A DNA stretch of 16,682 bases from a virus. Below, one piece after another: positions 1 through 16,682 of this stretch. The stretch lies in IMG/VR virus record IMGVR_UViG_3300045988_094222; one strand, written 5' to 3'. A model generated the notes under the pieces. It was not told the DNA's origin, did not search any database, and saw only the letters and a list, made by a program, of their open reading frames with translations. Within the stretch, counting starts at the first letter, position 1; every line of letters begins with the position of its first letter. The translations under genes and the position numbers were made by a program.

Positions 1-119
1 ACGATTGCCGATTTCCGAGAATCCCTCAAAGGTTCCCTGAATTGCCATTGTTCGCCTCTTTTCGTTGCAATTCCGCCGTTTTCAGGCTTTTTTTATTTTT
101 GGTTGGGGGTGAAAAAAAC
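1..119. repeat. Left copy of the 119-nt terminal direct repeat (circular-assembly overlap or true terminal redundancy)
   Basis: Base-by-base identity with 16564..16682, checked by eye including the T7-A-T5 tract. Confidence 0.95.
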
Positions 120-2673: not shown

Positions 2674-2854
2674 TTCTACGCCCCTTCCTGATTGCCTCGG
2701 CAATGTGCTGGTTGATGGTCACGAGGTCGCCCAGACTCATGCCCGCGAAAGCGAAGTAATCGCCGTCAACGGTGATTCTGAAGCCAAACGAGTTGTCAAC
2801 CTCGAAATGGTCAACGTCGAAATGGTTGTGCGACTCCTTGGTGAAAACAGGCAT
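2663..2854 (-). CDS. Hypothetical small acidic protein
   Basis: 63-aa ORF. The ATG at 2854 lies 1 nt after the upstream stop (2856..2858). AGAGGTGA ribosome-binding site 8 nt upstream. Confidence 0.6.
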   Translation of the reverse strand: MPVFTKESHNHFDVDHFEVDNSFGFRITVDGDYFAFAGMSLGDLVTINQHIAEAIRKGRRSAL

Positions 2855-2855
2855 G

Positions 2856-3095
2856 TCACTTCACCTCTAACGGCTTGCGGCCAAGAAGAACATCAGTGCT
2901 GACGTTCAGCATTTTGGATAGCGCAACTACTTCGTCCGCTGTAAAGCGGGTATCACCATTGAGCTTTTTCGAGAAGGACGGCGGCGTGATACCCAAGGCT
3001 TTAGCCGCGTCCTTCTGCAAAATTCCGCGCCATGTAAGCAACGTCTTTATGCTCAGCGTGGCGGAATTAAGCTCAGCTTTATTAGATTTCGACAT
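2856..3095 (-). CDS. XRE-family helix-turn-helix regulator (Cro-like, first gene of the leftward operon)
   Basis: LLTWRGILQKDAAKALGITPPSFSKKLNGDTRFTADEVVALSKMLNVSTDVLL is a classic HTH_3/XRE pattern. The start is placed at the ATG 3095 (MSKSNKAEL), because a TATAAT box sits 6 nt upstream and the track extension to 3161 runs through the operator repeats. Confidence 0.8.
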   Translation of the reverse strand: MSKSNKAELNSATLSIKTLLTWRGILQKDAAKALGITPPSFSKKLNGDTRFTADEVVALSKMLNVSTDVLLGRKPLEVK

Positions 3096-3130
3096 GCCTT
3101 GATTATAGCATGAGAAGTTAAGCTGAGCAA
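3096..3130 (-). promoter_or_regulatory. Leftward promoter giving a leaderless cro-like mRNA
   Basis: Minus-strand reading: TTGCTC (3130..3125), 17-nt spacer, TATAAT (3107..3102), 6 nt, then ATG (3095). The -35 element lies inside copy 1 of the 31-bp repeat. Confidence 0.6.
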
Positions 3131-3176
3131 TCCGGCGTGTCGCAGAAGTTAAGCTGAGCAATCCGGCGTGTCGCAG
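3113..3176. repeat. Perfect 31-bp tandem duplication (2.06 copies) in the divergent switch region; candidate operator pair
   Basis: AGAAGTTAAGCTGAGCAATCCGGCGTGTCGC occurs at 3113..3143 and again at 3144..3174, plus AG. Each copy contains TTAAGCTGAGC. A related full palindrome, AAGCTCAGCTT, lies at 3069..3079. Confidence 0.9.
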
Positions 3177-3212
3177 TGGACAATTGAATTAGGCTGACGC
3201 TAATCTAATTGC
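3177..3212 (+). promoter_or_regulatory. Rightward promoter giving a leaderless repressor-like mRNA
   Basis: TGGACA (3177..3182), 18-nt spacer, TAATCT (3201..3206), 6 nt, then ATG (3213). An imperfect inverted repeat, CAATTGAATTAG (3181..3192) / CTAATCTAATTG (3201..3212), overlaps it. Confidence 0.5.
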
Positions 3213-3542
3213 ATGACACAAACAATTATTAGCCCTCGACCTACAGCGGAATCGAGGCAAAGTGAAAGTCTCCAAGAGATAGTGACGCGGAACATGCGCG
3301 TGGCTATCGCGCTGCGCGGCTGCGCGCAAAAGGACTTAGCGGCTGCTATGGGAATAACGCCCGCCAGCTTGTCTCAGAAGTTCGTCGGTAAGACCTTGTG
3401 GAACCTCGTAGATATAGAAAAAGCCTCAGGTTTCTTCAATGTGAAACCTGAGGCGTTGGTAGCGGGGCATGGATTTGAACCATGGACCTCTGGGGCTAAA
3501 CCACCTTGGATATATCCCGATTACTGGGCGCTGGTTGACTAG
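3213..3542 (+). CDS. XRE-family HTH protein (CI/repressor-like) whose 3' end is encoded by the attP core
   Basis: The HTH pattern is RNMRVAIALRGCAQKDLAAAMGITPASLSQKFVGKTLWNLVDIEKASGFFNVKPEAL. The last 28 or so codons (AGHGFEPWTSGAKPPWIYPDYWALVD) are read through the antisense tRNA 3' fragment and beyond. Confidence 0.8.
   Translation: MTQTIISPRPTAESRQSESLQEIVTRNMRVAIALRGCAQKDLAAAMGITPASLSQKFVGKTLWNLVDIEKASGFFNVKPEALVAGHGFEPWTSGAKPPWIYPDYWALVD
3411..3454 (-). terminator. Rho-independent terminator on the minus strand, immediately 3' of the tRNA-like fragment
   Basis: A perfect 12-bp stem, GCCTCAGGTTTC (3423..3434) / GAAACCTGAGGC (3443..3454), with an 8-nt loop. On the minus strand it is followed by TTTTTCTATATC. 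Confidence 0.6.
3457..3494 (-). other. attP core: 3' portion of a tRNA gene (T-arm, acceptor 3' strand, discriminator, CCA)
   Basis: The minus strand reads CCCAG-AGGTC-CATGG-TTCAAAT-CCATG-CCCCGCT-A-CCA. That is the anticodon-stem 3' strand, variable loop, T-stem/loop, acceptor, discriminator and CCA. There is no matching 5' acceptor strand or D-arm upstream, so it is a fragment. It lies 74 bp upstream of the integrase gene. Confidence 0.8.
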
Positions 3543-3567
3543 CTGCGCATGGTGGTAGCGTGCGGCC

Positions 3568-4392
3568 ATGGCGAAGAAAATGGTTATGCCCGTTGCGTGG
3601 GCGCAAGATGTTGATTGCTGGTTGGAGACGTTGAAGGCCGCTGGTTTCAGCGACGACACGGTGAGGTCGCGCCGGTACAAGATAGCGCGGTTGTGCCGTG
3701 AGCTGCCAAGCCCGATGGAGACAACCGGTGAGCAGATAACGCGGGTTTTCGCGGCGCATGATTGGAAACCCGAGACGCGCAAGGGCTATCGCAACACGAT
3801 AGCCGGGTTCTACCGCTGGTTCTATGAGACGGGTCGGCGTGGTGACAATCCCACGGCGAAGGTGCCGAAGGTGAAGAAGCCACAGGCGCACCCCCACCCT
3901 TGCCCTGACAAATATATTCTCATGGCGTTGGGGAAGGCCACCGAAGATGAACGGCGCATGATACGGCTCGCCGCCGAATGCGGCCTACGTCGTTCCGAGA
4001 TTGCCGCCGTGAACAGTGATGATGTGATGGACGATTTGCTAGGCAAGTCGCTTATCGTGCGAGGCAAGGGCGACAAGCAGCGCATAGTGCCGTGCCCTGA
4101 CGATTTGGCCGCTGAGATACAAGCGTGCGGCGGCTACCTGTTCCCCGGCAGATGGTCGGGACACGTCGAAGCGTCTTACGTGGGCAAGCACATTACACGG
4201 CTGCTGCCTGATGGCTGGTCGGCCCACTCGCTACGGCACCGGTACGCCACCAGAACCTATGAGTCAACACATGACCTGTACTTGGTGAGCAAACTGCTGG
4301 GCCATTCCTCGGTCGAGACAACACAAATCTACGTTGCGATGCCTGACAGCCGGTTACGCGCCGGCATGTCCGCCGTCACTCTGCAAGCCTGA
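3568..4392 (+). CDS. int: Tyrosine recombinase / phage integrase (small XerC/D-like type)
   Basis: Catalytic signature: GLRRSEI (Arg), HSLRHRYAT (His-x-x-Arg), LLGHSSVETTQIYV (His...Tyr). It is adjacent to the tRNA-type attP. Confidence 0.92.
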   Translation: MAKKMVMPVAWAQDVDCWLETLKAAGFSDDTVRSRRYKIARLCRELPSPMETTGEQITRVFAAHDWKPETRKGYRNTIAGFYRWFYETGRRGDNPTAKVPKVKKPQAHPHPCPDKYILMALGKATEDERRMIRLAAECGLRRSEIAAVNSDDVMDDLLGKSLIVRGKGDKQRIVPCPDDLAAEIQACGGYLFPGRWSGHVEASYVGKHITRLLPDGWSAHSLRHRYATRTYESTHDLYLVSKLLGHSSVETTQIYVAMPDSRLRAGMSAVTLQA

Positions 4393-4424
4393 TAAGATTC
4401 TGACAACCCAAAGAAGGATTAACC

Positions 4425-4838
4425 ATGAAAAAGATTATCGCAGCAGCCGTCACCGTTACCACCGTGTTGTCGTTGGCCGCTTGCGGCGGCAATACAGCCG
4501 TCGATAAGTCCGATTGTCTGGACGTGCCGCAAGACGTGCTGAATGTCGTGGCTTCAGGCAGCGACAGCAGCGGTTTAAAGCCCGAGACCGGCAAGGCCGT
4601 GAAGGGCGACACCGAAGGCACCTATTGGCTTGCCATGAAGTTCACCGCCGATGGTTTCAACGGTGATACCGAGACCGGTATATGGCTGGTGTCCGGTCTT
4701 GATGCCGCCAGCGCCGCGCCGGTCATGTCGGTTGACGGTTTCGCCAAGCAATTCACGCACTGGCCCACGCAAATCAACGGTACCGAGCTGAACGGCACCG
4801 AAGAGAAGGCGAAGGCCGCTGCCGCGTGTCTGGCCTGA
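4425..4838 (+). CDS. Secreted lipoprotein (lysogeny-expressed moron; candidate superinfection-exclusion factor)
   Basis: Signal peptide plus lipobox: MKKIIAAAVTVTTVLSLAAC-GG. AGAAGGA ribosome-binding site. It lies downstream of int on the minority strand and is followed by a strong terminator. Confidence 0.85.
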   Translation: MKKIIAAAVTVTTVLSLAACGGNTAVDKSDCLDVPQDVLNVVASGSDSSGLKPETGKAVKGDTEGTYWLAMKFTADGFNGDTETGIWLVSGLDAASAAPVMSVDGFAKQFTHWPTQINGTELNGTEEKAKAAAACLA

Positions 4839-4839
4839 T

Positions 4840-4879
4840 ATGCAACAGCCCCCCCCACATTGTGTGGGGGCTGTTGCAT
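4840..4879. terminator. Bidirectional stem-loop terminator between convergent lipoprotein and holin genes
   Basis: ATGCAACAGCCCCC (4840..4853) pairs perfectly with GGGGGCTGTTGCAT (4866..4879), giving a 14-bp stem. An inner ACA/TGT pairing is also possible. Confidence 0.8.
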
Positions 4880-5136
4880 CATTGCGCGTGCTTGGCGCGT
4901 GATTTCGGGGTGATTGGGTTGTCTTTCCACCATGCCCAGAGCGCGGCTCCCACGTTGAAGAGCAGCGCGACTAGCTGGTTCACGGTTTCGTCCGCAATCG
5001 GTATGGTGTCCACGCCGAACATGACAAGCGCCGCGTTGACAAGTCCCAAGAGAAGCACAATGAAGCGGGCGATTGTGGCCGCGCTGATGCCGGGCGTGCG
5101 CGGGTCGCCGCCTTCCACCTGTTCCTCGTTATCCAT
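4879..5136 (-). CDS. Holin (two-TM, phiLC3/Dp-1-like architecture)
   Basis: 85 aa. It has two hydrophobic segments (IARFIVLLLGLVNAALVMF and LVALLFNVGAALWAWW) and a charged C-terminus. It lies directly downstream of the endolysin gene, with a GAAGGAAGG ribosome-binding site. Confidence 0.75.
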   Translation of the reverse strand: MDNEEQVEGGDPRTPGISAATIARFIVLLLGLVNAALVMFGVDTIPIADETVNQLVALLFNVGAALWAWWKDNPITPKSRAKHAQ

Positions 5137-5139
5137 GGT

Positions 5140-6015
5140 TTAGCCTTCCTTCTCGGTCTTGCTGGTCGCGGTCACGTTGATTTCGAGCGCGTCCAGTTTC
5201 GCTTTCACGGCGGTTTCAACGGTTTTGGCGATATCGGCGGGGTTGCTGCCGAGCGCCTTGGAGAGCGCTTCAATCGCCGCCGCCTGAGCGGTGATTGTCG
5301 CGGTCATCTCACGCACGCGCTTGTCGATGTAGCACACGCGCGTGTAGATGTCGCCTCTGCTGCCGTCCTTGGTGCCGCCGTCGTCCGTGCGGGTGAGGAT
5401 TCGGTAGAGCGCGGCGGTGTCGTGATGTACCCAACTGAGCCTCACCCATGCGGGTAGGTTGTTCTTGCCGCTTGTGGCGTTCTCGCCAAGTCCGTAGTTC
5501 CAAACGTCTCCGGCGCTGGTCATGTCGTTTCCTTCCAGTATTTCGTTTGCCTTGTTGATTACGTAGATGTAGTTCAGCCCGTTCGGCGCGAGGTCGGGGC
5601 ATGTGGTGTGGTCTGAGCCGGGTATCTCACGGTGTAGAAACACGTTCACACCGTGTACGAGTTTCGGCCAGCCGTATCGGCGGGCGATGTCCGCGCACAG
5701 TCGCGCCGAAGCGTCGTGGCAAGCCTGAGTACAGGGTATGAAGTCCATTCCGCCCTGATGCTCGATGCTGATGGTCTGGCAGTTGCTGGCATGGTTGCTG
5801 TCGGTCCATGGCGCGTCAGATTCGGCTACGTACTGGTGTATTTCGCCGTTGGGGCCGATACCGTACGTGCTTGATGCCTGTCGGTTCGGGTTCTGAAACA
5901 GGCTGTCCGTGCCGGTCAGGTATCCGGCCATGATGTGCAAGGTGATGCGCGTCACCTTGTAGCCCAAGCGGCCGTTGTAGTGGTTCGGGCTTCCTATCCA
6001 CTTGATGCCATCCAT
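5140..6015 (-). CDS. Endolysin, N-acetylmuramoyl-L-alanine amidase (Amidase_2/PGRP type) with a C-terminal domain
   Basis: ITLHIMAG..., SIEHQGG, and HREIPGSDHTTCPD (a His...Cys zinc-ligand pattern as in T7-lysozyme-type amidases). AAAGGA ribosome-binding site. Confidence 0.85.
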   Translation of the reverse strand: MDGIKWIGSPNHYNGRLGYKVTRITLHIMAGYLTGTDSLFQNPNRQASSTYGIGPNGEIHQYVAESDAPWTDSNHASNCQTISIEHQGGMDFIPCTQACHDASARLCADIARRYGWPKLVHGVNVFLHREIPGSDHTTCPDLAPNGLNYIYVINKANEILEGNDMTSAGDVWNYGLGENATSGKNNLPAWVRLSWVHHDTAALYRILTRTDDGGTKDGSRGDIYTRVCYIDKRVREMTATITAQAAAIEALSKALGSNPADIAKTVETAVKAKLDALEINVTATSKTEKEG

Positions 6016-6836: not shown

Positions 6837-8245
6837 GGTTCCTCACCTATTTTCGATACGTAGCGCAAAGCGCCAAGTTTCCAATTGCAGTCAGCGAATG
6901 TGGCCGTGCTGGTCATGGCCTTCATCTGGGCGCATGTCGGCGTGCCCGTTTTGGTGTTGACGGCGGGGAAAAGCCGCGCCTTATGCGTCCAGTGGCTTTT
7001 GCGGTTGGTCACGTCGTATGTGAGCGTGCCGCCGATTTTCGCCCACGGCCCGTATGCGGCCGGTGCCGAACGCTCGAATTTCGAGCCGATGAACACCATG
7101 ACCGTTGGGCGGCAGTACATGAAAAGCTGGTTGAGCCTGTCGCCCCTGAACGTGACTTCGGGGAGCCGCAAACGCCGGTTGCTTTCCCTGATGGTGTTCA
7201 TGGCAAGCGTGAAGTCGATTTTTCCGGGGTCGCTGTCCGCCTGATTGTCGTACTGAGTCCAATTGGCCTCGATGCTCAGGCATGTGTCACCCTCACGCGC
7301 CGACTGTTCGACCTGAACGGAACGGCTGCCGTCCTGATTGAACTCGACCGTCTTGTAGCCGCTGCCGTTGCCTCGGTGCGAATATTTGAACTCAAGTTGC
7401 GTGTAGTATTCGTCTGCTGCGCTCAACGACGGTTCGGGGTCGATAATCACGTCTCCAGCGTCCGCATAACGACTGTCAACGCCTATGTCTGTGTTGTCGT
7501 CGCCTGTGCGGATACGCGGGCCGGTCAGCACGGTGTCAATCGTCCATCGAAGATACAGCGCCTCGAAAGACGGTATTTTCTTCGGGTCGGCGCTTTGATA
7601 CGAGATGTAGGCTGTGCGGTCAATCTCGAACTGGTATTTGCTGTTGACCTGTCGTGTCCGGCAGCTTTGCGCCCAGTCGATGAAGCTCTTGCGTTGTTCC
7701 GCGCTGAATGGCGTGGGGAAAATACTCCACGGCCACCAGTAGTTTTGCACGCCGTCGTAGTACAGCCACTTCCGCACCGTTTCTGATGTCTGCCCTTGCA
7801 TCCACCATTGCCAGCCGCGCGCCATGTTCGCGGTGGTGTTCGTGTTCGGCCCTTGTCGGCAATCGGTCTTCAAGATATAGATTCTGTCCGATGCTGTCAC
7901 GCTCAACCGGTTTCGTCCGCCGTCATGGTCGAGAATCTGCACGTCGGTAACGTAGCCGTCGAACAGGCAGAAGTTCACCGGTGTGGCTGTGTTCCCCCAG
8001 TCGGGTGAGATGGTGAGCCTGTGGCCCATGAGCAAGTCGCCCGACTTACTGAAACGGTCTGCTTGGTCGATAAGCGTGATTTTCAGCACGTTCGGCGTGA
8101 TATCGTCCCACGGGTTCGACACGCCCCAAGTGATAGTGAAGGGGCTTAACGCCACGAGGTCGGCGCTGCCGTCCGATTGCAAAGGCAAGGGCGATAGGTC
8201 AAGATACACATGGCATGTTTCGGGCAAGGGGTTCGCGCTGCTCAT
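6833..8245 (-). CDS. Minor tail protein (distal tail/baseplate-hub-like)
   Basis: 470 aa, directly after the tape measure gene. The ATG at 8245 overlaps the tape measure stop (ATGA), so the track start at 8278 is rejected. Confidence 0.65.
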   Translation of the reverse strand: MSSANPLPETCHVYLDLSPLPLQSDGSADLVALSPFTITWGVSNPWDDITPNVLKITLIDQADRFSKSGDLLMGHRLTISPDWGNTATPVNFCLFDGYVTDVQILDHDGGRNRLSVTASDRIYILKTDCRQGPNTNTTANMARGWQWWMQGQTSETVRKWLYYDGVQNYWWPWSIFPTPFSAEQRKSFIDWAQSCRTRQVNSKYQFEIDRTAYISYQSADPKKIPSFEALYLRWTIDTVLTGPRIRTGDDNTDIGVDSRYADAGDVIIDPEPSLSAADEYYTQLEFKYSHRGNGSGYKTVEFNQDGSRSVQVEQSAREGDTCLSIEANWTQYDNQADSDPGKIDFTLAMNTIRESNRRLRLPEVTFRGDRLNQLFMYCRPTVMVFIGSKFERSAPAAYGPWAKIGGTLTYDVTNRKSHWTHKARLFPAVNTKTGTPTCAQMKAMTSTATFADCNWKLGALRYVSKIGEEP

Positions 8246-9955: not shown

Positions 9956-10488
9956 TCACCTCGTTCTGCGTCGAATGTCTTCGGTTTCCTCGGCCTCTTG
10001 CCGCAAGAGGCTTACACAGGTGCCCCAGTCGGCCTCTTGCGGCTGTGATTCACGCCGCCATGCCCACGGCGTGCCGCCGAAACGCGCGGCCAGTACACAG
10101 CTCAGTTCACCGAAGCCGCCGCTGTCCCACCGGTCGCACCGGTCGAAAAACCCGGCGCGTCCGCCATGTCGCCGGAAGAGACCGGCACGGGGCCGTTCAT
10201 GGTTTCGGCCTGTTCCTCGGTGTCGGTCGGGTCGTTGTTCATGTCCACGACGGAAACCACGGTGTCGGCCCACTGCTCGAACGGAACAGAGGTGGCGCCG
10301 ATTTGGCGGCAGCGCACGTAGGCGGCGTAGGCGTTGAGCTTCACCACCGCGTCCAACGCGCTGCCCCAGCCCTTCGCCTTCGCGTGGGTTTCCGCTTGGC
10401 AGCGTTGCCACATGGTCACACAAACCTCGTCCGTGTGGCCGTCCAAGTAGGTGATACGGGTGTTCGGGGTCTTGGTCTCGTTGTTCAT
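9956..10488 (-). CDS. Tail assembly chaperone, -1 frameshift product (GT-like)
   Basis: ORF 9956..10423 is in the -1 frame relative to 10102..10488. Slipping at G_GGT_TTT gives ...APGFFDRCDRW..., and the product ends 14 nt before the tape measure start. Confidence 0.7.
10102..10488 (-). CDS. Tail assembly chaperone (G-like, zero-frame product)
   Basis: 128-aa acidic protein immediately upstream of the tape measure gene. It contains the slippery site near its 3' end. Confidence 0.75.
   Translation of the reverse strand: MNNETKTPNTRITYLDGHTDEVCVTMWQRCQAETHAKAKGWGSALDAVVKLNAYAAYVRCRQIGATSVPFEQWADTVVSVVDMNNDPTDTEEQAETMNGPVPVSSGDMADAPGFSTGATGGTAAASVN
10147..10153 (-). promoter_or_regulatory. Programmed -1 ribosomal frameshift slippery heptamer G_GGU_UUU
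   Basis: The minus strand reads CCG GGT TTT TCG in the zero frame (P G F S). This is the X_XXY_YYZ pattern, and the -1 frame stays open to 9956. Confidence 0.7.
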
Positions 10489-12052: not shown

Positions 12053-13621
12053 TCAGGCGGTCTTGAACTTGACCGGGATAAGGCCGTCAACGTTTGTGGC
12101 GGCAACCGCCATATAGCCGTACACCGAATAGTTTTCGGTGAGCTTGGTCGGGTCGCCGTCGCTGAGCTGCGTGGGGCCACCGCTTTCCCACACCGTCACC
12201 GATTCGGGGTCGATGAAGCACGCCGTGCCAGCCGGGGCCTTGGGGAGCATCTGCACCGGCAGACGAAGGAACTTACCGGCGATGCCGGTCAGGTCGAAGT
12301 TGCCGATGGTGTCCGAGCCGTCGCCGGACAGGTCGAAGAATCGGGAACCGCTGTCTTTCAAGGCGATAAGCGAGGCCATAACGTCCTTGCTGACGCCAAG
12401 ACGGGTGAGGTTCACGTTACGGTCGTCGGCCAGTTCGGCGGCGTTCATAATCAGCGTGGCCCACTGGTCGATGGTCATGTTAGCAAGCGTGGCGGGCGCG
12501 TCGAGCTTGTTGGGGTTACTCGTCGCGTCACGCTGACCGGCGATGGTCGTATACAGGTAGTTGCGCACGGCGGTTTCGGTCGCCTTCGCGTAGGCGTTGC
12601 GCAATGCAGCCAATGCCGTGTTGAGCATTGGGGTGGTGGAACGCTCGATTACCTGACGGCTCATGGTGGTGTAGCCGCCGTAGGTGTCGATTGACACGCT
12701 CTTGGTGCCGAACGTGACCTTGCCGAACTTGAGCGCGTTGCCTTCCTCCGCCTGTTTCGTCGCGCCGGTGGTGTCGGTGCTGACCACGTTGTATTCCATG
12801 GTCATGCCCTTGTCCGGCAGTGTGTCGTGCGTGAGAATGTTCGTTACCTTGCGGCGCATTTCGATAAGCCGCAAATCGTCCGCAATCCAAGCGCTCGTGT
12901 TGCCGGTGCCGCCGGTGGCGATAAGGTCGCGGCATTCGTGCATGAGCGTCACGGCTGCTTCGTCTCCGCGAGAGAGCGCCTGTAGATAGTCTCCGGCGGT
13001 ACGGTATTCACCGCCCAAGGTCTTGTGTTCGGGGGTGCTGCCCTTGGCGATGGCGGCTTTCATGCTGCGCTGTTCGTCCTTGATGCCGTCAAGCATATTC
13101 TGTAGTTCCTTGTCCACCTTCGGTGCCTCGCTTTCGGTTGATTGGTTGTTGTTGGTGGTCTGCTGCGCGTTGCGCTGCCCGGTGATTTTCGCGGCCTCGT
13201 ACGCGGGCCATGACACCACCGACGTTTCCAACAGGCGCACGCGCTTGCGGTGCGTGATGCCCTGTTTGTCGGTCTCCGACTCGATTGGGATAAAACCGAC
13301 GCTCAACGAGTCCAGCGCGCCGTCACGCAACAATGCGACAGCGTCGCGGCCTCGCTGCGTGTCCGAGATTCGGGCCGTGATATGCAAGCCGTCTTCGCGG
13401 GGTTCGGCGTTGGTGATTCGTCCGATGGTCTCGCCATGCTCATAGCTGAGCTTGGCGCTGTCCACGTCATCGAACACGCAATCAGGGTCGAACGTCTCTT
13501 GGCCGTCCCATGTGTCGATAATCTGGCCGAACGGCACGGCGATGCCCTCAAGCGTGCGCCCGTCGCCTTCATCGCTGCTGCGAAGGCACACGCCACGCAA
13601 GCCGATATCGATTCTGTTCAC
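12053..13621 (-). CDS. Prohead protease (HK97/S78-type) fused to HK97-fold major capsid protein
   Basis: The N-terminal 150 or so aa (LEGIAVPFGQ...LSYEHGETIGRI...EDGLHITARI...DGALDSLSVGF...VSWPAYEAA) fit the prohead protease pattern. A Gln/Asn/Lys-rich coiled linker follows, then an approximately 330-aa capsid-like region. There is no separate protease or scaffold gene. A GTGA overlap links it to the portal stop. Confidence 0.8.
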   Translation of the reverse strand: MNRIDIGLRGVCLRSSDEGDGRTLEGIAVPFGQIIDTWDGQETFDPDCVFDDVDSAKLSYEHGETIGRITNAEPREDGLHITARISDTQRGRDAVALLRDGALDSLSVGFIPIESETDKQGITHRKRVRLLETSVVSWPAYEAAKITGQRNAQQTTNNNQSTESEAPKVDKELQNMLDGIKDEQRSMKAAIAKGSTPEHKTLGGEYRTAGDYLQALSRGDEAAVTLMHECRDLIATGGTGNTSAWIADDLRLIEMRRKVTNILTHDTLPDKGMTMEYNVVSTDTTGATKQAEEGNALKFGKVTFGTKSVSIDTYGGYTTMSRQVIERSTTPMLNTALAALRNAYAKATETAVRNYLYTTIAGQRDATSNPNKLDAPATLANMTIDQWATLIMNAAELADDRNVNLTRLGVSKDVMASLIALKDSGSRFFDLSGDGSDTIGNFDLTGIAGKFLRLPVQMLPKAPAGTACFIDPESVTVWESGGPTQLSDGDPTKLTENYSVYGYMAVAATNVDGLIPVKFKTA

Positions 13622-16306: not shown

Positions 16307-16611
16307 GCCTTCGCCTCGGTCAGCAGCGCGGCCAGATTCTCGTCAAGCTCGGGGGCCTCGGGGTACAGTTCGCGCAAATGGTCGAAAGCGTTGTTATAGC
16401 TGTCTGCCAGCGTCGAAATGTTCTTGCCCAACGTCAGATAGCTATCGATGTTGTGCGCTATCGCGGTCATCAGCGCCGCGTAGGTGTCAGCGGCCTCGGT
16501 GACGGTCTTTCCATCGAAGAACGTCTTGAGGTTGGCGCGTGTGCGCGTCTCCATGAAGCCCTGACGATTGCCGATTTCCGAGAATCCCTCAAAGGTTCCC
16601 TGAATTGCCAT
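16303..16611 (-). CDS. Hypothetical protein in the small-terminase position
   Basis: 102-aa acidic helical protein translationally coupled to terL, with a GAGG ribosome-binding site. No DNA-binding motif was recognised, so the TerS call rests on position only. Confidence 0.4.
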   Translation of the reverse strand: MAIQGTFEGFSEIGNRQGFMETRTRANLKTFFDGKTVTEAADTYAALMTAIAHNIDSYLTLGKNISTLADSYNNAFDHLRELYPEAPELDENLAALLTEAKA

Positions 16612-16682
16612 TGTTCGCCTCTTTTCGTTGCAATTCCGCCGTTTTCAGGCTTTTTTTATTTTTGGTTGGGGGTGAAAAAAAC
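16564..16682. repeat. Right copy of the 119-nt terminal direct repeat
   Basis: Identical to 1..119. It contains the start codon (16611..16609) and the GAGG ribosome-binding site of the 16303..16611 gene. Confidence 0.95.

Follow-up and report, generated by a model that had tools for sequence, protein, structure and literature searches.

The DNA analysed here is a 16,682-nt stretch (IMG/VR record IMGVR_UViG_3300045988_094222; hereafter the window), and it is the circular form, with an intact phage attachment site (attP), of a 16.56-kb temperate siphovirus of Bifidobacterium longum. The attP core of this phage lies inside the 3' part of its repressor gene, rep, and integration at the host tRNA-Met gene turns a 109-residue viral Rep into a 95-residue prophage Rep. 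We consider it rather probable that the phage is controlled by a three-gene int-rep-cro switch of the integration-dependent immunity type. This is the simplest lysis-lysogeny switch known, and the experiments on it all come from mycobacteriophages; here a prophage that is very common in a key commensal of the infant gut shows the same wiring. The features on which the argument turns are the following.

3213..3542, plus strand: repressor gene rep in its viral (attP) form, an open reading frame (ORF) of 109 aa, with a helix-turn-helix (HTH) domain at residues 20-84 and residues 85-109 predicted to be disordered
3417..3454, minus strand: intrinsic terminator for the rebuilt tRNA gene, located by a terminator scan (12-bp stem, 8-nt loop, TTTTTC), antisense within rep codons 69-81
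3457..3494, minus strand: attP common core, which coincides with the 3'-terminal 38 nt of the host tRNA-Met(CAT) gene and matches the tRNA of locus L001 exactly
3495..3542, plus strand: viral-form-only tail AKPPWIYPDYWALVD and stop codon, split from rep on integration and left beside int in the left prophage junction (attL)
3568..4392, plus strand: tyrosine integrase gene int, 274 aa, matching Phage_integrase (E=3e-18) over residues 126-258 only and PHROG 1 (E=1e-36)

Read on the minus strand from 3494 to 3457, the core is CCCAGAGGTCCATGGTTCAAATCCATGCCCCGCTACCA. ARAGORN identified a complete tRNA-Met(CAT) gene on the minus strand (10287-10364) of L001, a relative integrated in a 2.2-Mb Bifidobacterium contig, and the 38-mer of the window equals L001 10287-10324 at 38/38 positions, a match that chance cannot explain. 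This exact match bears out the initial annotation of the window, which had placed a 38-nt antisense tRNA 3' end at 3457..3494 in the late codons of rep. The core spans the 3' strand of the anticodon stem, the variable loop, the T arm, the acceptor 3' strand and CCA; the tRNA itself looks initiator-like, with a C1/U72 mismatch and three G:C pairs closing the anticodon stem. ARAGORN and Rfam found no tRNA in the window, because only a partial tRNA gene is present there. The core corresponds to rep codons 82-94 of 109 and is followed by 15 codons and the stop. The ORFs also agree with the proposed position of attP in the repressor-like gene, upstream of a co-oriented int, which begins 73 nt after the core (a gap of 74 bp had been claimed).

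With the host tRNA found, attL and the right prophage junction (attR) were read from real integrated copies, and sequences of the unoccupied host site were compared with them. These copies use this tRNA-Met gene rather than a different attachment site, and in them the C-terminus of the rep ORF changes. Long chromosomal contigs with 99.3-99.6% identity to the window (L128-L132) have the order host DNA, core, tail and int, i.e. attL, and their homology to the window begins at 3453-3455. The order in two B. longum isolate assemblies with 99.4-100% identity (L133 and L134) is cro, rep and core, and homology stops exactly at 3494. The break is also at 3494 in L135, which is more diverged further upstream and has a rep-core segment that is 100% identical over window 3144-3494. 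Beyond the core, L134 continues with the tRNA 5' part and then with metA and the ATP synthase operon; metA (Pfam HTS) and ATP synthase genes also follow the tRNA of L001. One 398.7-kb scaffold (L127 and L128) holds two tandem copies of the window phage, creating, within a chromosome, an internal attP with full-length rep beside int. A scan of IMG/VR with the core gave 120 loci which, with the other contigs analysed, cover all four junction types. Among the species-representative genomes no window-type junction was found; a rep-side junction is present in those of B. cebidarum, B. phasiani, a B. angulatum metagenome-assembled genome (MAG) and one MAG labelled Eggerthellaceae.

Polymorphisms within the core help to locate the exchange. 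T at core position 26 is found at 13 attL junctions and at 0/59 unoccupied host (attB) or attR sites; it is also found at 0/13 attP junctions sampled, the attP of the phages that carry this variant having fallen outside those 13. A TCG variant at the left edge of the core is restricted to attL. This distribution places the crossover within GTAGCGGGGCATGGATTTGAACC (acceptor 3' strand, T stem and T loop), and the exchange probably occurs at the T loop. We also note that after some prophage repressors a second, larger element stands in place of the tRNA 5' part (L133 10289-20288, L135 10289-20288, L007, L032, L048). It has the core and GTTATGA in common, then diverges (TCCC...), and carries SSB, WhiB and DUF3310 genes; tRNA-Met is thus a site at which different elements accumulate in arrays.

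Rep is an XRE-type HTH protein by its matches to Pfam HTH_3 (E=4.8e-4, below the curated cut-off) and PHROG 4583 'transcriptional repressor' (E=5.8e-10). The start at 3213 is favoured over an internal Met by the conservation of L20, Q21, V24 and N27 near the N-terminus. AlphaFold2 predicts with confidence a five-helix HTH fold for residues 20-84, while residues 85-109 are of low confidence and devoid of secondary structure. In the circular form the 109-aa protein ends ...AKPPWIYPDYWALVD. The prophage form (P0067, 95 aa) consists of the first 94 residues of the window protein and L, then stop, and ends ...GHGFEPWTSGL; the stop is the TGA of GGG TTA TGA, the reading of the anticodon loop on its opposite strand. 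Integration had been proposed to swap the Rep C-terminus for host-encoded sequence, and it does: the 15-residue tail is lost and one host-encoded Leu is gained, leaving the protein 14 residues shorter. Since the tail and the core-encoded segment are predicted to be disordered, integration would edit a flexible C-terminal extension and not the DNA-binding fold.

P0067 is annotated in B. longum isolate genomes beside the tRNA and metA, and is present on 115 contigs. The viral form of Rep was found on ~300 contigs, up to 592 kb in size, and the prophage form on ~650; attP junctions are common. The GenBank accession numbers of Int and Rep lie ~20 apart within the same assemblies (KAB7020680/KAB7020700; KAB7025874/KAB7025893), a spacing that fits a prophage of ~21 genes bounded by int and rep. 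For annotation, this means that the 95-aa and 109-aa (or 68-aa and 82-aa) 'HTH proteins' of Bifidobacterium assemblies represent a single gene in its two forms.

The 3' part of rep serves the host tRNA as well. A terminator hairpin comes straight after the tRNA CCA, antisense to rep (3454->3417). Across 19 distinct repressor alleles, 96% of the cells are paired and 3 pairs show compensatory changes; the covariation score was reached in 0/500 shuffles, and slid controls were 27-56% paired. Where no prophage is present, a different terminator hairpin, the host's own, stands behind the tRNA, so the phage hairpin takes its place in lysogens. The phage core and embedded hairpin thus rebuild a complete, terminated tRNA gene in lysogens. 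Constraint on codons 69-94 by the antisense terminator and tRNA part also accounts for ...DIEKASGFFNVKPEALVAGHGFEPWTSG being near-invariant in Reps that are otherwise 50-70% identical. One DNA stretch at the rep C-terminus is therefore put to a triple use: one strand codes for protein, and the other holds the 3' part of the tRNA together with its terminator.

Comparison of the repressor tails was made on the 39 tails translated beside the core, on the int side, at attP or attL junctions in the loci analysed; one extra junction with a stop directly after WTSG was excluded. The tail ends in [IS]LAA in 20/39, in ILTA in 7/39 and in the ...ALVD of the window in 12/39, and a few further non-LAA endings occur among database homologues. 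The LAA and LTA tails belong to five or six Int lineages with very different DNA; Int identity is 47-68% between these lineages and 93-95% within a lineage in which some tails end in SLAA and others in ILTA. Every relative with an LAA or LTA tail carries the tRNA T arm again on the sense strand after the core (CCAGAGGTCCAAGGTTCAAATCCATG), and this copy forms a ~26-nt inverted repeat with the core (right of the core in L003 10273-10340, L026, L036, L044, L054 and L065). This repeat may serve Int binding, or act as an RNA hairpin ahead of int. The copy encodes the tails in two frames (..RGPRFKSM.. or ..QRSTVQIH..), and the end is still LAA or LTA. The persistence of these ends across two frames and very different DNA is good evidence that a C-terminal tag is under selection in the family.

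The window tail, ...PDYWALVD, has an acidic C-terminus without an ssrA-like LAA or LTA end, and the inverted T-arm repeat beside the core is absent too. The initial annotation had, as speculation, loosely likened the ends of Rep and Int to degradation tags; this found no support, as Rep ends in ALVD without LAA and the Int C-termini are not conserved in the family. Every copy of the window-type tail has the same DNA over at least 90 nt, independent of repressor allele and host flank, indicating that the tail travels with int. Each of the few tail variants seen changes the amino acid (W to R, W to G, I to M and A to V). The same repressor body is also found with LAA tails (P0070, P0006), and from such identical bodies with different tails it follows that the core acts as a module boundary. 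LAA, LTA and ALVD tails on identical repressor bodies are a ready-made allelic series for testing whether the tag is necessary. The window-type tail accompanies the Int lineage that is most abundant at tRNA-Met in Bifidobacterium, and its want of an ssrA-like tag is what mainly sets the window phage apart from its close relatives.

The idea that the ALVD tail is a frameshifted LAA-type tail, raised by the resemblance of an out-of-frame CTAGCTGCG to LAA codons, was rejected as unsupported: in local alignments of the tail region with five LAA-type regions, the score was matched by 63 to 673 of 1000 shuffles. Viral contigs with a transfer-messenger RNA (tmRNA) gene were also searched for the ssrA tag of Bifidobacterium and yielded one tmRNA, in L142 at 7110-7482, whose 3' end matches the published Bifidobacterium tmRNA att core; its tag, ANDNFVPAFAAAA, was not used as a host ssrA reference.

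Upstream of rep lies a divergent control region, with a second small HTH gene on its far side.

2856..3095, minus strand: cro-like HTH gene encoding 79 aa (start ATG at 3095), at the head of the lytic and structural block
3096..3212, no strand assigned: divergent control region of 117 bp, read from the sequence
3130->3125 (-35 TTGCTC) and 3110->3102 (extended -10 TGCTATAAT), minus strand: candidate promoter PR with a 17-nt spacer, 6 nt before the cro ATG
3177-3182 and 3201-3206, plus strand: candidate rep promoter Prep, TGGACA-18-TAATCT, 6 nt before the rep ATG, 8/12 consensus positions
3067..3159, no strand assigned: four copies of the operator candidate TTAAGCTGAGC, as an inverted pair at 3067-3081 and direct copies at 3118-3128 and 3149-3159
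3113..3174, no strand assigned: perfect 31-bp tandem duplication, in this copy only, which doubles one operator candidate

The cro-like ORF matches Pfam HTH_3 (E=1e-7, on a longer ORF) and PHROG transcription-regulator families (E ~3e-7). From the positions of the candidate promoters, both PR and Prep messenger RNAs would be leaderless. At up to one mismatch the window holds 4 matches to TTAAGCTGAGC, all within 93 nt, against 0.13 expected, and 4 was reached in 0/200 shuffles; the inverted pair is inside the 5' end of cro, and the 3118-3128 copy overlaps the candidate PR -35. A 1-nt deletion in the window (~3104) turns the minus-strand cro -10 from TATAAA into TATAAT. This deletion and the 31-bp duplication are absent from 9/9 related loci, which have the single-copy sequence, and together they may mark a regulatory change, in promoter or operator, peculiar to this genome.

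In Int, no arm-type N-terminal domain was detected with Pfam, and the protein ends ...AVTLQA. The window Int lineage is 52-68% identical to other lineages that use the same core. No Xis or other recombination directionality factor was detected, with no Xis or HTH_17 match in any small ORF of the window, which is an absence of matches and not proof; some relatives carry an HTH_17 gene.

The closest known systems are in the same host genus. Mavrich et al. (2018; PMC6109161) reported ~18-kb tRNA-Met prophages of B. breve, Bb423phi2 and 689b-1, with int at attL and rep at attR, predicted a viral Rep with 18 extra residues including an ssrA-like tag, and called the arrangement integration-dependent immunity. 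The att core of this group (also Bl-1 and Bbr-1; PMC6109161), TGGTAGCGGGGCATGGATTTGAACCATGGACCTCTGGG[T], is the same, 38/39 published positions being identical in the window. Both share a tRNA-Met site beside metA, a mostly structural genome of ~16-18 kb, int at attL and rep at attR, and a viral Rep longer than the prophage Rep (predicted in the B. breve case, PMC6109161). The B. breve repressor homologues have an invariant ...EALVAGHGFEPWTSGL end like that of the window Rep, at ~63% identity (P0042). The window differs in its B. longum host, its size of 16.56 kb, its Int lineage, its 15-residue ALVD tail in place of 18 extra residues with an ssrA-like tag, and its lack of an inverted T-arm repeat beside the core. 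The integration-dependent immunity design had hence already been predicted within this lineage, in 2018 for the B. breve relatives (PMC6109161), and the initial annotation, in presenting it as new to a different lineage, overstated its novelty, since the same was predicted for tRNA-Met bifidoprophages with the same core. Beyond Mavrich et al. (2018), no further link between Bifidobacterium and integration-dependent immunity was found in the papers searched.

The traits by which integration-dependent immunity is recognised here follow Broussard and Hatfull (2013; PMC3694055) and Villanueva et al. (2015; PMC4557955), who dealt with the phages BPs, Brujita and Charlie. Like these, the window phage has a ~2-kb int-rep-cro cassette with rep and int co-oriented and cro divergent, an attP, formed by a tRNA 3' end, that falls within the 3' part of rep, a Rep that is shortened in lysogens, and a small, simple Int with no Xis found. 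The truncation of Rep is 14 residues net, compared with 33 in BPs. In contrast to the mycobacteriophage proteins, neither Rep nor Int of the window has an ssrA-like end, so the tag on viral Rep is missing. No sequence relationship to those proteins came to light, no test aimed at it having been made. Further afield, the Gordonia cluster CW, Microbacterium cluster EE and Curtobacterium phage Barebow are, like the window phage, 16-18-kb siphoviruses with a capsid-protease fusion. Temperate Gordonia cluster CW phages share phams with bifidoprophages and show integration-dependent immunity features (Mavrich et al., PMC6109161). The phage search for Rep returned a single homologue, in an unannotated faecal contig (38% identity), and the cluster EE genomes gave no Rep match. 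The cluster EE phages of Microbacterium are lytic.

The switch that we rather favour would operate as follows. The 274-aa Int recombines at the core, the antisense tRNA 3' end inside rep. In the circular form rep and int would be co-transcribed from a promoter just upstream of a leaderless rep. Upon integration rep runs out of the phage into the tRNA antisense strand and stops after one codon, giving 95 instead of 109 aa, and int moves to the opposite prophage end, ~16.5 kb from the rep promoter region. The 95-aa Rep would then repress the divergent lytic promoter via TTAAGCTGAGC-type operators. The weakest step is the last one, in which the disordered 15-residue tail would lower the activity or stability of the viral form, such that immunity is established only after integration. 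As the tail has no ssrA-like end, any degron must act via a signal other than a terminal LAA.

Several observations weigh against this switch. The tail ...DYWALVD is acidic, and under the ssrA/ClpX rule (terminal Ala-Ala) its recognition is not expected; the BPs repressor is stabilised by an A135E change (PMC4557955). Because the tail and int-leader DNA are near-invariant, purifying selection on the tail peptide is not demonstrable. The C-termini of Int vary across the family (TLQA, LLSA, TLAG, RLDV, RLI, TTAR), with no conserved motif or tag. A sigma-70 consensus scan of 2700-5200 gave no promoter, which leaves candidate PR and Prep unsupported; of the earlier proposal that integration parts int from a rightward promoter at 3177..3206, the distance of ~16.5 kb between int and the rep promoter region stands, and the promoter, which failed the scan, remains conjectural. 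Judged by their tails, the sister lineages with LAA ends would fit the integration-dependent immunity model better than the window phage does.

In the main rival account the overlap of attP and rep is structural only: the tRNA 3' part and a terminator are needed by the phage, and the rep frame simply passes through them. Rep would then be stable and active in either form, with ordinary CI/Cro immunity, the tail would be a neutral by-product, and integration dependence would have been lost. We regard this as possible though unlikely. It would explain why the window tail, unlike all other core-adjacent tail types translated, lacks LAA or LTA, why every one of its few variants is non-synonymous, and why it is disordered and outside the HTH fold. 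The last ~27 codons before the tail are explained by the antisense tRNA and terminator constraints, and a tail type that accompanies the most abundant Int lineage is clearly not deleterious. Nevertheless, LAA has been kept in sister lineages through frame changes and sequence turnover, so the tail matters in the family; the cassette retains all other integration-dependent features; and an aromatic, hydrophobic tail could be a degron of another class. We also advance a suggestion tentatively: the window phage may be a natural 'tagless' case of integration-dependent immunity, in which the viral Rep is inactivated otherwise (by another protease class or by blocked oligomerisation) or the switch is independent of proteolysis. 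If true, a proteolysis-independent switch predicts unusually high lysogenisation, which would fit the prevalence of the phage in human-gut B. longum.

Two further alternatives concern the identity of the repressor and of the junction. The plus-strand HTH protein might not be the immunity repressor at all, that role falling to the divergent 79-aa HTH protein while the plus-strand protein perhaps regulates int or excision. Both proteins are small and of the XRE HTH type, and the better HTH_3 score belongs to the one on the minus strand. Its gene, however, heads the replication, packaging, structural and lysis block, which is the position of cro, whereas the plus-strand gene lies beside int as in BPs, encodes a protein that matches PHROG 'transcriptional repressor' families, and is kept intact at attR in hundreds of lysogens; the exchange of roles is accordingly very improbable. 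It is also improbable, if slightly less so, that the attP junction of the window is an assembly product of tandem prophages and that viral-form Rep exists only in polylysogens. A scaffold with tandem copies and an internal rep-int junction does exist (L127, L128), viral-form Rep occurs on contigs up to 592 kb, and a tandem repeat would likewise give a 119-nt overlap at the window ends. But thousands of 10-20 kb contigs with the exact Int, and rep contigs of ~16.2-16.75 kb, point to unit-length circles. A tandem junction would still be a true attP made by the same recombination, and the coding consequences would be unaffected.

The overlap just mentioned is an exact 119-nt direct repeat at both ends of the window (1-119 / 16564-16682), and it shows that the window was assembled as a circle, one unit of which is 16,563 bp long. 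It encodes HNH, terminase, portal, a capsid-protease fusion, tape measure, tail proteins, holin and amidase (Pfam/PHROG), i.e. a complete small siphovirus. The replication, packaging, structural and lysis genes are all on the minus strand behind the cro-like gene, and the plus strand holds only rep, int and a lipoprotein gene. By megablast, GenBank phage records gave no nucleotide-level match to the whole window. B. longum genomes include an annotated protein identical to the window Int, and 7883 index blocks of the contig collection list it; contigs of 10-20 kb that carry it number in the thousands, and several rep-carrying contigs measure ~16.2-16.75 kb. The capsid-protease fusion (12053-13621, minus strand) has 31-34% aa identity to those of ~17-kb Microbacterium cluster EE and Curtobacterium phages and is the sole clear tie between the window and isolated phages.

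The lipoprotein gene (4425-4838, plus strand) encodes a signal peptide followed by Cys and lies directly 3' of int on the lysogeny strand; it may be a superinfection-exclusion or moron gene. A G+C-rich hairpin after it (4840-4878) could terminate both converging transcription units. Deletion variants of the region occur as well (L143 2752-3544; P0039, P0043, P0049): int is absent from one contig, and two proteins are Rep-Int fusions. One deletion variant has lost the core and tail, with the break after ...EALVA, and our reading attributes this loss to two copies of TGGTAGCG (window 3457 and 3553).

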